A DNA stretch of 64,000 nt from Flavobacteriales bacterium (GTDB lineage: Bacteria; Bacteroidota; Bacteroidia; Flavobacteriales_F; PHOS-HE28): positions 44,010 to 108,009 of the forward strand of contig JAEUSY010000049.1 of NCBI GenBank assembly GCA_016788295.1. Direction: 5' to 3'. The position numbers and the translations under genes were made by a program. The notes beneath the pieces are model-generated. The model was not told the DNA's origin and searched no databases. It saw only the letters and a program-made list of their open reading frames with translations. Shown here one piece after another: positions 3,954 to 30,545 of this stretch (positions are counted from its first letter, which is position 1; each line of letters opens with the position of its first letter).

Positions 3954-4757
3954 TCAACGTCGGCTCTCGCACGCTTCGGTGGTCACGAACCTGCCGTTCA
4001 CGTAACGTACGACCCCAGTGTACAGGGTGCGTTCCAGGAGCTGGGGTGGTTCATCGCTCGTCCACTCGTCGTAATAGGCATAATGGAAGGAGGCCGTGGC
4101 CGGGTCCAACTCGAAAAGCTCCACATCGAAGAAGCGTCCCTCGTAGTCGTGAACCCCCAGAATGTGCACGGTGGTCCCTTTGAGCCGCAGGCCTATTGCG
4201 CTATACGCACAGCAGGTGGAGCAGGTGGTCACACGTTCGACGGTGAAGTAAGTACTGTCGTCGAGCTGAATGATGTCGTCCCAAGATCCGATCCCCGAAG
4301 CTACGATCTCCACTGTTCCACCATCCAAGGTCGATCCATCTTCTGTCTCAGCGTCCAGTGTGTTCGGTTGACCAGCCCACACCGACCCTTTAGTCCGCAT
4401 ATATAGCAGGGTGTAGTTGGCCCGGAATGTGCCACCCGTGTTCTCCGGCAAATGGAAATGGGCAAGGCGACCATCGGGCGATAGGGTCATCCCGATCCTT
4501 CCCCGGAATTCCTTCTCCAGATCAATGATCACCGACCTCGGATCGCTCAGCAGGACCCTTAGGCGTTCCATGATGCGCGTGCCGAGGGCTTCGATTGTAT
4601 CCGTAGCCCCCGGTTCATCCGAAAATGGGCTCAGCGTATCGTAGCGTGCAAGTTCCGTTTGTAGGGTCTTGATGGTCTTTCGCATGGCGGCCGGGGGCTG
4701 GGCCTGCACAGAACCGCAATACAGCACAAGAAGGATCAGTAGCGCGCGAACGATCAT
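3954..4757 (-). CDS. Secreted hypothetical protein
   Basis: Signal peptide (SVQA/Q), coding-like composition, TTCSTCC Cys cluster, 4-nt overlap with the thioesterase gene. Confidence 0.7.
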   Translation of the reverse strand: MIVRALLILLVLYCGSVQAQPPAAMRKTIKTLQTELARYDTLSPFSDEPGATDTIEALGTRIMERLRVLLSDPRSVIIDLEKEFRGRIGMTLSPDGRLAHFHLPENTGGTFRANYTLLYMRTKGSVWAGQPNTLDAETEDGSTLDGGTVEIVASGIGSWDDIIQLDDSTYFTVERVTTCSTCCAYSAIGLRLKGTTVHILGVHDYEGRFFDVELFELDPATASFHYAYYDEWTSDEPPQLLERTLYTGVVRYVNGRFVTTEACESRR

Positions 4758-5670: not shown

Positions 5671-7551
5671 TCAGGCCTTTTCCGGCGGGGAGTCAAAGCT
5701 ACTGAACGCCGAATTATGGCTCCGGTATTCGGGCACCAGGCGCTTCAATACCTTCACCATGGAAGCTCCATCGCCTTGGTGGATCAACTGCTCCAGTTCC
5801 TTGAGCCCGTTGCGCAGGGCCTCCGGATCGTTGTCACGCACTTTGCCGATCAGTATCCGAGGGTGGTGCGTGGGCAGGGTGTTCTCTGCCGTGGCGAGCA
5901 GTTCCTCGTACAATTTCTCCCCCGGACGAAGACCCGTAAAGGCCACTTCGATGTCACGTCCCGGTTCAAGCCCGCTCAGCCTGATCATCTTGTCGGCCAG
6001 TTCAGCGATCCGCACCGGTTCACCCATGTCGAACACATAGATCTCTCCGCCCTTGCCCATGGTGGCTGCTTCAAGCACCAAGCGACAGGCCTCTGGAATG
6101 GTCATGAAGAAGCGTGTCACTTCGGGGTGGGTTACCGTGACCGGTCCGCCCGCTGCGATCTGCTTGCGGAACAAGGGGATGACCGATCCGCTGCTACCGA
6201 GCACGTTGCCAAAGCGGGTGGTAACGAAGGCCGTGGCACACCCCGCGCGCAGGCTGCTGACCACCTGCTCGGCCACGCGTTTGCTGGCTCCCATCACGCT
6301 AGTGGGGTTCACGGCCTTATCAGTGCTGATCAGCACGAACCGCTCGGCACCATGTGCACACGCCAGTTCGGCCACGGTGCGGGTGCCAAGTATGTTGGTG
6401 TGTACAGCCTCGCCGGGCTGGGCTTCCATTAGGGGCACGTGCTTGTATGCCGCCGCATGGAACACCACTTGGGGTAGGTGTGCGGCGAAAACGGTCTTCA
6501 TCCGCTCCCTGTCGCGCACATCGGCGATCAACACACGCAGCTGTTCACCGGCACCCTTGCCGCGGAGCTCCATTTCCACATCATATAGGCCCGACTCGGC
6601 CACGTCAACCAGAACAAGCTCAGCCGCGCCCAACTGGGCCAACTGGCGGGCCAGCTCACTGCCTATGGAACCTGCCGCACCGGTAACGAGCACACGCTTG
6701 CCAGCGAACAGGGCACGCACATCGGCCTGGTCCAAATGGATGACAGGGCGCCCCAAAAGGTCCTCGATACGCACCTCCTGGATCTGGCCTGCGCTGAGCT
6801 GACCGTTGATCCAGTCGCTCACCGGCGGAATGGTGAGCACACGCACCTTGGCGGCCATACAGGCATCCACTACTCGCCTGCGGTTCTCAGGGTCGGGTCG
6901 TTGGATGGCAATGATCACCTGGTCCACGTCACCTTCGGCCAACAAGGCCTCCAAGCGCGTCGTGGGCTGCACCATCACCCCTTCCAGGCTCTTTCCGGTG
7001 CGGCGTTCGTCGTCATCCACGAAGGCCAGCACTTTGTACTTCGCCGAGCCTTCGCGCTCCAACGTGCGCTTGGTGATCAGCCCGGCCTCTCCGGCCCCAT
7101 GGATGACCACCGTGACCACGTTCTTTCCAGCGCCCTTGCTGCGCAGGTAACGTAGCTTGAAAGCGATGCGCGAGGCGATGAGCAACATGGCCGTACCCAG
7201 GAAATCGATCACGATGACCGAAGTGGGCAGGAAGTAGAGTTGGTCGACGGTCCAATAGCGCACCGCACTGGCCACCCCAAAGGCGAACGAGCCGCCCAGC
7301 ACCGTCAGGAAGATCTTCCGGGCATCGTCGGTGTTGGTGTGGCGCACCATTACGCGCTGCGTGCCAGCGACCAGGAACGAACCCAGCCGAATGGCCAGGA
7401 ACAGGGGCAGCACGGGCAATAGCAGCGCCACTTCATGCGCCGGCACCTGGAAGTTGAACCGCAGGAGATAGGCCGCCGCCAGCGCGATCAGGCATTGTAC
7501 CAGATCGATCACCAACACACCCCAGCGGGGGAACAGTCGCTGTTTGGCCAT
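5671..7551 (-). CDS. capD: Nucleoside-diphosphate sugar epimerase/dehydratase (CapD/WbpM/PglF)
   Basis: N-terminal TM helices, GAGEAG, IEDLLGR, VTGAAGSIGSEL, FHAAAYKHVPLME, STDKAVNPTSVMGASKR, RFGNVLGSSGSV, GLRPGEKLYEEL. Start moved to MAKQRLF. Confidence 0.95.
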   Translation of the reverse strand: MAKQRLFPRWGVLVIDLVQCLIALAAAYLLRFNFQVPAHEVALLLPVLPLFLAIRLGSFLVAGTQRVMVRHTNTDDARKIFLTVLGGSFAFGVASAVRYWTVDQLYFLPTSVIVIDFLGTAMLLIASRIAFKLRYLRSKGAGKNVVTVVIHGAGEAGLITKRTLEREGSAKYKVLAFVDDDERRTGKSLEGVMVQPTTRLEALLAEGDVDQVIIAIQRPDPENRRRVVDACMAAKVRVLTIPPVSDWINGQLSAGQIQEVRIEDLLGRPVIHLDQADVRALFAGKRVLVTGAAGSIGSELARQLAQLGAAELVLVDVAESGLYDVEMELRGKGAGEQLRVLIADVRDRERMKTVFAAHLPQVVFHAAAYKHVPLMEAQPGEAVHTNILGTRTVAELACAHGAERFVLISTDKAVNPTSVMGASKRVAEQVVSSLRAGCATAFVTTRFGNVLGSSGSVIPLFRKQIAAGGPVTVTHPEVTRFFMTIPEACRLVLEAATMGKGGEIYVFDMGEPVRIAELADKMIRLSGLEPGRDIEVAFTGLRPGEKLYEELLATAENTLPTHHPRILIGKVRDNDPEALRNGLKELEQLIHQGDGASMVKVLKRLVPEYRSHNSAFSSFDSPPEKA

Positions 7552-27983: not shown

Positions 27984-29125
27984 GCAAGCCGCAAGTGATC
28001 GTGTTCGTGGACTGGTACAAGCCCGGATACAAGGGTGGCGGACCAGTGCGCAGCATGATGAACCTGGTCGATCACATTGGCGACCATGTGGACCTTTGGT
28101 TCGTGACCAGCGATACCGACTACACAGCGGATGCCCCATATCCCGGCATTGTTCCAGACATATGGACACCGTTGCCGAGTGGCGAAATGGTCTGGTATGC
28201 TTCTGCGAAAGGCCGGTCGCGCGCCAACTGGGCGAAGTTGTTGGCGGAGCGCAAGTGGGATGCCGTGTACATCAACGGCATGTTCTCGTGGTGGTATTCG
28301 ATCATGCCTTTGGCCGTGCTGCGCGGAACCACGCAACGGCGCATCGTGGCCGCCAGGGGGATGCTGCTACCCGGTCCCATGGGACAAGGCGGACTGAAGA
28401 AGCGCACATTCCTCACTTTAGCTCGCGCTGCGGGTCTGTACAGAGGGGTCGAGTTCCAATCAACCAGTGCCGATGAGACCTTGAGCATTCAACACTGGAT
28501 CGGTAAAAGCCCTCCCATCCACCTCGTACCGAACCTGCCTCGGAAGCTCGAAGCGACTACGAGACCCGCACGCACGAAGCAGCCAGGAAGCGTGCGGTTG
28601 GTGAACGTGGTGCGGATCGCCACGGAGAAGAACATCCACCTCATTATCGAGAGCCTGCATGGTCTGCGTGGCGAGGTGACCTTCGACCTGTTCGGCCCCG
28701 TACACCATGTCGATTACTGGGCCATGTGCCAGCTGGCCATCGCACAATTACCGCCCAACGTACACTTCGCCTACTACGGGCCTCTACCTTCCGAAGCAGT
28801 GCCTGCAACGCTTGCCGGGAACTACCATGCGCTCTTCATGCCCAACGAGGGCGATAACTTCGGCCACACCATGCTCGAAGCCATGTGTACCGGACTTCCC
28901 TTGCTGATAAGCGACCGCACACCGTGGCGCCACCTGGAGCAACAGCATGTGGGCTGGGACCTGCCCTTGAACGAGCTTTCTGCCTTTACCCGCACCATCC
29001 AGCGCCTTATCGACATGGACCAGACCGAGTTCGATCAGTGGTCAGAAGGGGCGTTCCAATACGGCAGGCGGCAGGCGGAAGACCCCAACGCCGTGGCGCT
29101 CAACCTTCATTTGTTCCGCGCATGA
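27980..29125 (+). CDS. Glycosyltransferase family 4
   Basis: WYKPGYKGGGPVRS, RIATEKNI, PNEGDNFGHTMLEAM...ISDRTPW. Confidence 0.9.
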   Translation: MSKPQVIVFVDWYKPGYKGGGPVRSMMNLVDHIGDHVDLWFVTSDTDYTADAPYPGIVPDIWTPLPSGEMVWYASAKGRSRANWAKLLAERKWDAVYINGMFSWWYSIMPLAVLRGTTQRRIVAARGMLLPGPMGQGGLKKRTFLTLARAAGLYRGVEFQSTSADETLSIQHWIGKSPPIHLVPNLPRKLEATTRPARTKQPGSVRLVNVVRIATEKNIHLIIESLHGLRGEVTFDLFGPVHHVDYWAMCQLAIAQLPPNVHFAYYGPLPSEAVPATLAGNYHALFMPNEGDNFGHTMLEAMCTGLPLLISDRTPWRHLEQQHVGWDLPLNELSAFTRTIQRLIDMDQTEFDQWSEGAFQYGRRQAEDPNAVALNLHLFRA

Positions 29126-29688
29126 GCACCACACGCGCCACTGTGGACCTGAGCCGCTTCAACAACTCCGCGGACTTCGACCCCGGTGCGGGCATCGTGA
29201 AGCGCACGCTGTGGTACTTCACCAATGCCCTGTTCTTCCTGAACCCGTTGTTCCCGTTCCGCTCGCCGAAACCAGCGCTGCTCCGGCTCTTCGGCGCCAA
29301 GGTGGGCAGTGGCGTGGTCATCCATCCCGGCGTCAACATCAAGTTCCCGTGGAAGCTCCGTATCGGTGACCATAGCTGGGTCGGCCAGCGCGCATGGCTC
29401 GATAACCTGGACACGCTGACCATTGGCAGTAACGTGGTCATTAGCCAGGGCGCCATGATCATCCAAGGCAGCCACGACTACAAGAAGATCGATTACCCCA
29501 CCTACACGAAACCGGTCGTGCTCGAGGATGGCAGTTGGGTGGGGGCAGGAGCCATAGTTACCCTGGGCGTCACCCTCAAGAGCCACAGTGTCCTTGCCGT
29601 GGGCAGCGTGGCCACCAAGGACCTGGAGGCATACATGATCTATCAGGGAAATCCGGCGGTGGCGGTGAGGGAAAGGATGATCCAATGA
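29122..29688 (+). CDS. wcaF: WcaF-type polysaccharide O-acetyltransferase (left-handed beta-helix)
   Basis: LRLFGAKVGSGVVIHPGVNIKFPWKLRIGDHSWVG, ISQGA...GSHDY, GNPAVAVRER. Confidence 0.9.
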   Translation: MSTTRATVDLSRFNNSADFDPGAGIVKRTLWYFTNALFFLNPLFPFRSPKPALLRLFGAKVGSGVVIHPGVNIKFPWKLRIGDHSWVGQRAWLDNLDTLTIGSNVVISQGAMIIQGSHDYKKIDYPTYTKPVVLEDGSWVGAGAIVTLGVTLKSHSVLAVGSVATKDLEAYMIYQGNPAVAVRERMIQ

Positions 29689-30545
29689 AAATCTCCCTCA
29701 TCACCGTCTGCCGCAACGTCGCCCCGGTCATTGCCGAGACGCTGGATAGCGTGTTCGCGCAAACGTACCCCGACATCGAGCTGATCGTGATCGATGGTGC
29801 CAGCACCGATGGCACGGTGGAGATACTGGAACGCTACAAGGCACTTCCGCAGGGTCTCCCGACGAAGGAGGGGACACTGAGCGATCCAGTCGCAGGGTCC
29901 CTTGCAGGAGACCCTGCGGAGGAAGCTGAACGATATCGCGCGTCATCCCGCAAACGCGGCATCGACATCCTCGTTAGCGAGCCGGACAAGGGCATCTACG
30001 ACGCCATGAACAAGGGGCTTGCGCGCGCCACTGGCGATATCATCGGTTTCGTGAACGCCGGCGACCTGTTGATGACCCCAAACGTCGTGGCCGATATCGT
30101 GTCCGCTTTTCAACGGTCGCACGCCGAGGCTGTTTATGGCGATATCATCATGGTGGATGAGCGCGACATCTTCAAAGTACACCGCACCTGGCTCAGCGGC
30201 ACCTACCACCGGGAGAACTTCCGCAAGGGCTGGATGCCACCGCACGTGGGCACTTTCATTCGCAAGAGCGTGTACGACCGGCACGGCCATTTCAACACCG
30301 CTCTGCGTATTGGGGCGGACTATGAGATCCTGTTACGTTTCCTGTACAAGCATCACGTACACACCATCCATTTGCGCGAGGTGCTCGTCCGGTTCAGGCT
30401 GGGGGGCATGAGCAACGGTAGCGTTCGCCACATCCTTCGGGCCAACCGCGAGGTGCGCCGCTCGTGGGCGCTGAACGGGCTCAAAGCGCCACCATTGCTC
30501 GTTACCCGCAAGCTGTGGAGCAAGGTAATGCAGTTCTTTCATTGA
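29685..30545 (+). CDS. Glycosyltransferase family 2 (WcaE-like) carrying an in-frame insertion
   Basis: MKISLITVC, IDGASTDGT, SEPDKGIYDAMNKG, FVNAGD, GWMPPH, ADYE. An extra 33-37 aa follows ERYK. Confidence 0.9.
   Translation: MKISLITVCRNVAPVIAETLDSVFAQTYPDIELIVIDGASTDGTVEILERYKALPQGLPTKEGTLSDPVAGSLAGDPAEEAERYRASSRKRGIDILVSEPDKGIYDAMNKGLARATGDIIGFVNAGDLLMTPNVVADIVSAFQRSHAEAVYGDIIMVDERDIFKVHRTWLSGTYHRENFRKGWMPPHVGTFIRKSVYDRHGHFNTALRIGADYEILLRFLYKHHVHTIHLREVLVRFRLGGMSNGSVRHILRANREVRRSWALNGLKAPPLLVTRKLWSKVMQFFH
29846..29920. repeat. Palindromic REP/MITE-like element inside the GT2 CDS
   Basis: Perfect 14-bp inverted repeat TCCGCAGGGTCTCC (29846-29859) / GGAGACCCTGCGGA (29907-29920), plus a partial copy of the left arm CGCAGGGTC at 29891-29899. 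Confidence 0.72.

Follow-up and report, generated by a model that had tools for sequence, protein, structure and literature searches.

How did the gene for a GT2 glycosyltransferase in an uncultured member of the Flavobacteriales come to contain some 33 additional codons that are built around a DNA palindrome, and could a dispersed repeat have turned into part of a protein here? The gene lies in the window, by which we mean the whole 64,000-nucleotide stretch of DNA that was analysed (C51:44010-108009), within a genome of 3.78 Mb, 61 contigs and 60% GC. An earlier note on this DNA proposed that a REP- or MITE-like element had entered the coding sequence in frame and now codes for a loop, and this proposal is supported by the existence of a repeat family, by empty sites among the orthologues and by the position of the loop in the protein. 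Thus, we consider it very probable that the additional 99 bp are a copy of a palindromic repeat family of the genus that was inserted in frame in the GT2 gene and is translated as a loop. Throughout, gene context was taken from open reading frames (ORFs) and codon usage rather than from annotation, and the genomes compared are metagenome-assembled genomes (MAGs), several of them incomplete.

The host gene and the anatomy of the insert

The host ORF matches PF00535 with 90.4 bits, compared with a Pfam gathering cut-off of 23.3, and the Glycos_transf_2 match falls into two stretches, one on each side of the insert. The gene keeps every column that is invariant across 72 homologues and, judging from its sequence, looks intact. 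Its start overlaps by 4 bp the end of an acetyltransferase ORF that passes a WcaF-family subfamily model (208 bits vs a cut-off of 192). The GT2 itself fails the WcaE equivalog model TIGR04009, with 67 bits vs a curated cut-off of 369, and therefore the label 'WcaE-like' under which it was originally described is a loose one: it holds as a best-hit resemblance, not as membership of the equivalog. The features relevant to the argument are as follows; the anatomy of the insert was drawn from comparison with intact copies in orthologues.

28885-29688, plus strand: ORF for a WcaF-family polysaccharide acetyltransferase, upstream of the GT2 gene (family match, residues 87-266)
29685-30545, plus strand: GT2 glycosyltransferase gene, host of the insert (286 aa, PF00535)
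29829-29836, plus strand: left copy of the direct repeat, GAACGCTA (in the empty site, a single GAACGTTA)
29837-29935, plus strand: the 99 bp absent from the near-isogenic empty site (33 codons, approximately K52-Y84; the gap can equally be placed at 29829-29927)
29837-29848, plus strand: left head, CAAGGCACTTCC (family consensus CCMAAVCCTCC, from comparison of copies)
29849-29880, plus strand: hairpin A, 32-nt type (GCAGGGTC as the left arm, TCCCGACGAAGGAGGG as the apical part and, on the right, an arm decayed to GACACTGA)
29881-29891, plus strand: spacer between hairpins A and B
29892-29917, plus strand: hairpin B, 26-nt type, GCAGGGTCCCTTGCAGGAGACCCTGC (arms intact; translated AGSLAGDPA)
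29918-29927, plus strand: right head, GGAGG then AAGCT, the inverted counterpart of the left head
29928-29935, plus strand: right copy of the direct repeat, GAACGATA (from this point on, ERYRASSRKRGID agrees with the entire sequence of the sister species' empty site)

The elements of symmetry described in the earlier note are all present: the perfect 14-bp inverted repeat (TCCGCAGGGTCTCC at 29846-29859 and GGAGACCCTGCGGA at 29907-29920, arms 100% complementary according to a repeat finder), an internal copy of the arm (CGCAGGGTC at 29891-29899) and a direct repeat GAACGnTA whose two copies are 99 bp apart. Folded as RNA, the 132-nt stretch that comprises the insert reaches -62 kcal/mol (z = -4.56), a stability not attained by any of 200 dinucleotide shuffles. 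What has to be revised is the description of these parts as a single long hairpin with an alternative hairpin, because a better reading of the insert is a doublet that consists of two family hairpins, adjacent to each other, with the same stem (GCAGGGTC…GACCCTGC) and placed between inverted CCTCC/GGAGG heads. Since both hairpins use this stem, the left arm of hairpin A can pair with the right arm of hairpin B; the 14-bp repeat is precisely this pairing, and the supposed internal partial copy is the left arm of hairpin B. In the GT2 frame, the head and hairpin A read (K)ALPQGLPTKEGTLS, hairpin A together with the last codon of the head, CCG, being translated as PQGLPTKEGTLS, and hairpin B reads AGSLAGDPAE; an example of a peptide coded by the insert loop is EGTLSDPVAGSLAGDPAEEAER. 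That the window contains no second copy is true for all of its 64 kb, the family being dispersed in the rest of the genome; the sole other near match to the arm in the window, TGCGCAGGGCCTCC at 5811-5824 with two mismatches, is probably due to chance because 0.74 matches are expected.

Empty and filled sites among GT2 orthologues

The best 120 GT2 homologues, all from MAGs named 'Flavobacteriales bacterium', were aligned, and three classes of length differ in the loop. The 248-aa class reads …RYRPK-LGALVSEPDKG, the 253-aa class reads …RYRSAPGKRGIDILVSEPDKG, and the 277-325-aa class has PQGLP(T/R)xEGTLR…AGSLAGDPAEV at the same place. The 248- and 253-aa orthologues thus bear out the initial expectation that DGASTDGT and SEPDKGIYDAMNKG normally lie only a few residues apart. 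Among the 118 homologues of at least 245 aa, a short empty loop is found in 36, an insert at this spot in 33, and a longer loop with no recognisable hairpin peptide in the other 49.

The most telling of the empty sites sought among the orthologues is a near-isogenic one. In a sister species (genome G018, locus L005), the gene and more than 1.5 kb of DNA upstream of it share approximately 90% identity with the window, and exactly 99 bp are missing. The site there reads TTGGAACGT joined directly to TATCGCGCTTCATCC, where the window has CTGGAACGCTA, then CAAGG…GGAGGAAGCTGAACGA, then TATCGCGCGTCATCC. The octamer GAACGNTA that brackets the 99 bp in the window is present in a single copy in the empty site, and the complete native ERYRASSRKRGID is still present downstream of the insert in the window.

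The filled alleles, in turn, carry the hairpin arms in every DNA sequence examined (loci L002, L003, L004, L044 and L045), with the same loop of the GT2 orthologues holding either no hairpin units or two to four of them. Loci L002 and L003 consist of A and B; L004 has a longer A, one B and an extra half arm; L044 has A, B and a partial third palindrome that codes for PSRAESRG; and L045 (GCA_020635735.1) has A followed by three B units with a 54-bp spacing. The three B units of L045 (JACJZE010000012.1:30862-32439) have perfect arms and recur every 18 codons, that is, they form an in-frame tandem amplification. The additional PSRAESRG(G) segment was observed in the loops of L044 (JGI 3300076002 contig Ga0645779_38147), P0020, P0022, P0061, P0103 and P0105; its coding DNA, CCTTCCCGAGCGGAGTCGAGGGGAGG, is an imperfect palindrome similar to the apical part of hairpin A but devoid of the outer arms, and in P0061 the segment occurs alone.

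A repeat family of the genome and the genus

Does the palindrome exist outside this gene? A combination of blastn, regular expression and nhmmer profile searches detects about 36 element loci in the source genome. The family has a basal stem, GCAGGGTC/GACCCTGC, and a variable apical part that results in two common sizes, 26 nt (for example, GCAGGGTCTCCTTCGGAAGACCCTGC) and 32 nt (for example, GCAGGGTCTCCCGAGGAACGAGGGGACCCTGC), with the head CCMAAVCCTCC on one side of each hairpin. Inverted pairs of units make doublets with the terminal inverted repeats CCTCCGCAGGGTC…GACCCTGCGGAGG, and the elements are 74-111 bp long. The order head-hairpin…hairpin-head is found at C31:45199-45286, at C38:137980-138066 and in the GT2 copy on C51, and the first two doublets (the former as C31:45189-45286) align with the insert at 70-77% over approximately 90 nt.

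The exact pattern GCAGGGTCN{4,24}GACCCTGC occurs 12 times in the source genome and in 23 of the 25 genomes of the same genus, in 1-19 copies each; the 16 other genera of the class gave 0 occurrences, as did the reversed-pattern control. The family is specific to one genus of uncultured, 60%-GC Flavobacteriales. The earlier note had suggested a search for a repeat family in the whole genome, and the outcome is that the arm is not unique to the GT2 gene because the family recurs across both the genome and the genus, and that the filled loops examined at the DNA level carry the palindrome. Furthermore, the insert type is present in independent assemblies from NCBI, JGI, ENA and Logan.

These observations speak to the least credible of the alternatives, an ordinary hypervariable loop that grew by slippage and is palindromic by accident, or else an artefact of the assembly of metagenome bins: the total length of the orthologues does vary widely, from 248 to 325 aa, but we can give this notion next to no credence given that the same DNA recurs at some 35 further loci, most of which are intergenic, and in 23/25 genomes of the genus, and given the independent assemblies, the shuffles that never fold as well, and the near-isogenic empty site.

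The great majority of the loci, 33 of the 36, lie outside coding sequence and three (approximately 8%) lie inside, as scored on the codon usage of the flanks with a model trained on long ORFs, a locus being called coding when both flanks are stop-free and strongly coding in one frame. A profile of the insert peptide, which is blind to insertions read in other frames, had only 8 matches among 1.84 billion representatives, namely fragments of GT2, an unrelated protein of simple repeats, and spurious ORFs that overlie intergenic copies; therefore, the A+B frame combination is specific to GT2.

Several features of the other loci were noted along the way. Four hairpins (C30:14478-14552, C30:19868-19942, C29:39194-39269 and C52:50553-50616) are preceded by a common stretch of approximately 45 nt (GGAAAGGAAC…TGGTG…CTGGGCAGTGCGGCGTTGAGG), which suggests a repeated gene end or a small RNA. 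Clusters of hairpins that resemble variable islands are located at C5:7353-9794, C38:185127-187326 and C43:114490-120650, and one such island includes a 912-aa ORF; at C5:9633-9794, a 120-bp unit with hairpin A inside is duplicated in tandem.

Two other host genes in the source genome

The three coding loci are all doublets and are all in frame. Besides the GT2 copy, the C31 doublet lies inside a 3-hydroxyacyl-CoA dehydrogenase (3HCDH_N + 3HCDH), in the linker …APSSRTSAGSLAEDPAGTRGKTAGSLRASGDPAEVSQ…; a decayed copy is found at the same place in G006, and the insert is absent in 9/9 other same-genus orthologues with a readable linker. The C38 doublet lies, on the minus strand, inside a UDG-superfamily protein and is absent in all 15 same-genus orthologues that could be matched on both flanks, the query being split at residues 132/163. 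In three alignments at the DNA level, the source genome alone has an excess of exactly 90 bp at this site. From the comparison with outgroups, it follows that the insertions are gains in this lineage rather than losses elsewhere. The insert peptide varies between the host genes with the reading frame and, the hairpins being read in different frames in different hosts, the repeated unit is DNA, not protein.

Position of the insert in the protein

An AlphaFold2 model of the GT2, built on the 72-sequence alignment, has a mean pLDDT of 79 and a pTM of 0.76. Up to residue 50 the pLDDT exceeds 90, and it does so once more from about residue 91; over residues 51 to about 90-93, between the helix 44-50 and the strand 95-98, it is approximately 50-68. 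The insert thus falls in a low-confidence surface loop of the model, in line with the idea that the element codes for a loop, and this loop is predicted to be floppy.

Taken together, these data can be accommodated by a simple scenario. The extra 99 bp are a copy of a small non-coding palindromic repeat whose unit is the head CCMAAVCCTCC followed by a hairpin, an inverted pair of units making an 80-90-bp doublet, with most copies intergenic. One such doublet very probably entered the loop that connects helix 2 to strand 3 in the GT-A fold and would now be translated as approximately 33 disordered residues (…PQGLPTKEGTLSDPVAGSLAGDPAEEA…). Because its length is a multiple of three, there is no stop in the frame and the loop is tolerant, the GT2 gene would have stayed functional; we infer that an active protein is produced, and that selection does no more than let harmless insertions pass.

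History of the GT2 site: insertion or recombination?

Did the doublet arrive at this gene as such, or with a piece of another GT2 allele? A tree of the 118 homologues, constructed with the insert columns removed, is poorly resolved (54 of the 115 forks are open). The 33 filled alleles are scattered over it, with 27 state changes, at least five of which are forced by well-supported branches, and the filled label is equally clustered in 112 of 500 shuffles. This tree, poorly resolved as it is, gives no support to a single origin of the insert, which we accordingly do not adopt, and in view of the scatter, some filled alleles may have spread by recombination and not by new insertion. In L004, the insert sits three to four codons downstream of its position in the window, so at least two independent insertions at GT2 are likely. 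At the same time, P0019 (325 aa) and P0081 (248 aa) are near-identical outside the loop and differ by 77 residues within it, and such near-identical pairs with unlike loops imply that exchange of segments by recombination also occurs.

Hence the alternative that has to be taken most seriously: the gene could have recombined with an already filled GT2 allele, via an unequal or illegitimate crossover in a highly exchanged polysaccharide cluster, with no transposition in this lineage and with the ERY…ERY repetition being the scar of the crossover. Beyond the unclustered insert state and the P0019/P0081 pair, it can be invoked in favor of this scenario that the left junction (…ERY-K/RK-head-PQGLPTKEGTL) and the TKE variant of the loop are common to P0010-P0012, the right junction being different, and that the UDG insertion lacks the 8-bp duplication. 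However, for such a crossover the right end of the element would have to be homologous to the sequence that precedes ERY, and no such homology is seen; the duplicated 8-mer is located exactly at both ends of the element and exists in one copy in the empty site; and the family reaches the unrelated HBD and UDG genes, for which the sample of the genus contains no filled donor allele. We therefore regard recombination with a filled allele as rather unlikely, and an insertion of the doublet itself into the GT2 loop remains the reading that we prefer.

Rearrangements at the locus are on record in one relative. In G009, locus L043 (G009:C2:1872300-1877400) has three copies of the 5' part of the GT2 gene, from the start codon through the element, with hairpin B at 840-865, 1998-2023 and 4230-4255 of the locus; unrelated genes, including one for a 559-aa protein, lie between these copies. 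Two of the 5' copies end exactly at GGAGGTTTC, the right end of the element, and the truncated copies are fused to two different points in the 3' end of the upstream WcaF-like acetyltransferase gene. The end of the element is thus a site of DNA breakage and joining.

The same breakpoint can be cited for a different view of the insert, in which the hairpins are kept for a role in DNA or RNA, be it as an intragenic pause or terminator, as an mRNA-stability element, or as a recombination site that shuffles GT2 modules and cassettes within the polysaccharide locus, and the loop is a by-product. The strong predicted structure and the arms that remain perfect in many filled alleles and in the tandem B units are compatible with such a role. 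Yet hairpin A is decayed in the window and one of the six frames of the GT2 copy has acquired a stop (the other five are open); many close orthologues lack the element; nothing in Rfam matches 29500-30200 at E up to 1, and the hairpins are not followed by a T-run in the window sequence; and the arms are equally conserved in the intergenic copies, which recent copying fits as well as function does. All things considered, a role of this kind appears improbable, and we return to the inserted repeat.

Mobility and the search for a transposase

How would such a repeat move? The proposal that a RAYT or IS200-like transposase serves the family did not hold up. A search of the genome and 24 relatives identified a single Y1 (IS200-like, PF01797) gene in the source genome (C38:123159-123503, 72.7 bits), and its flanks contain three copies of a local repeat, GAGGGCTGAAGGCCCG, that is nearly absent elsewhere. 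Within approximately 800 bp of nine Y1 loci from relatives, there is no convincing family hairpin (the best nhmmer hit has an E-value of 0.03 and 9 bits), and the three of these loci that were read in detail are flanked by (C)GACCCYnnnnRGGGTC(G). The genome with the most hairpins, G011 (19), has no full-length Y1 match, this genome being only 78% complete. Given that the Y1 flanks of the source genome and of the nine others carry other repeats, the RAYT link is rejected for now. In addition, no transposase-like ORF was recognised from the ORF listing of four regions of the source genome that are rich in hairpins (C5:7-10 kb, C38:162-165 kb, C38:185-187 kb and C43:113-121 kb).

The Y1 genes themselves are accompanied by what looks like a second family: (C)GACCCYnnnnRGGGTC(G) flanks Y1 in G012, G004 and G015 (loci L046, L048 and L054) in a REPtron-like arrangement, and has 7 copies in the source genome, five of them clustered at C7:1929-2302. 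The GAGGGCTGAAGGCCCG repeats of the source genome are at C38:122700-123100. Near the Y1 gene of this genome, there are also a weak A-like hairpin, 460 bp upstream, and a CCTGCAATGCAGG palindrome, just downstream, neither being significant.

The flanking repeat of the GT2 copy, of the kind that a transposase would leave behind, has 8 bp, 7/8 identical, with one copy in the empty site, and the junction homology of the UDG copy is 3-4 bp at most. A target-site duplication of fixed length thus finds no support so far, because the 8 bp at GT2 are not reproduced at UDG. The copy number is low for a REP family, in the tens and not in the hundreds.

Comparison with known systems

In-frame palindromic insertions are known from the Rickettsia palindromic elements (RPEs) and from several bacterial MITEs (PMC10969869). 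Like the RPEs (Ogata et al. 2000, as reviewed in PMC10969869), the present family consists of dispersed palindromes of about 100 bp that are found both between genes and in frame in unrelated housekeeping genes, with the coded segment at a position compatible with the fold, here in three genes, GT2, 3HCDH and UDG. Unlike the RPEs, whose host is an AT-rich, obligate intracellular alphaproteobacterium, it belongs to 60%-GC Flavobacteriales of the free-living type, and its element is a doublet of two short hairpins; RPE-1 is mostly intragenic, whereas the share of intragenic copies is about 8% here (3/36). The host phylum and base composition differ, and no sequence relation to the RPEs is expected or claimed.

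The REPs and REPINs offer another parallel. GTAG/CGTC-tagged REPs, and REPs inside ORFs in several species, have been described (Di Nocera et al. 2013, PMC3733652), and the common features are GC-rich hairpins of 20-40 nt with a short asymmetric tag at one end that are mainly extragenic, often form inverted dimers and occasionally lie within ORFs. In contrast to the REPs, the tag is CCTCC (in the head CCMAAVCCTCC), with no GTAG/CGTC at the foot of the hairpin, and no REPtron was found for the family, the IS200-like genes of the genus having a different flanking repeat.

MITEs that make in-frame fusions include ERIC, QMITE1 of Coxiella and the Anabaena MITEs (PMC10969869, PMC5896051, PMC2229807). 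The terminal inverted repeats, the small size, the lack of an ORF of its own, the in-frame lengthening of proteins and the direct repeat that flanks the GT2 copy are all reminiscent of these elements, but the ORFs of the four hairpin-rich regions revealed no parental insertion sequence with matching ends, and the flanking duplication is inconsistent (8 bp vs <=3-4 bp). Finally, the BoxC/PIT/TMECO intrastrand-triplex repeats (Holder et al. 2015, PMC4666352) share with the present family a GC-rich dispersed repeat tied to genomic rearrangement, but the structure here is a plain two-arm hairpin; a BoxC/TMECO triplex was rejected because, on reading the sequence, the consensus CCCTCNCCC-N3-6-GGGNGAGGG-N3-GGGNGAGGG is missing in 29829-29960. 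As far as the sequence allows one to classify it, the insert appears to be an intragenic REP, MITE or RPE-like element.

Implications

If the GT2 insert is what it appears to be, it represents a well-controlled case, outside Rickettsia and cyanobacteria, of selfish hairpin DNA joining working proteins, the controls being the near-isogenic empty sites, the three host genes and the genus-wide census. For annotation, it accounts for the odd low-complexity 'PQGLP…AGSLAGDPAEV' loops and the spurious small ORFs in Flavobacteriales MAGs. For biology, the family is a tractable case in which to study the movement of such repeats without an attached RAYT, with one loop of an enzyme in which close relatives have either no hairpin unit or two to four of them and an element end that serves as a rearrangement junction in a sister genome. 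A more daring hypothesis, and in our estimate a long shot, is that the ends of the element (…GACCCTGCGGAGG) are cut and joined by an enzyme other than the IS200-like transposase of the genus, such that the family lands repeatedly in the GT2 loop, amplifies in 54-bp (18-codon) steps and supplies breakpoints for duplicating and re-joining pieces of the polysaccharide locus. Should such active remodelling prove to be the case, the family would be a built-in diversifier of surface-sugar enzymes rather than passive junk.
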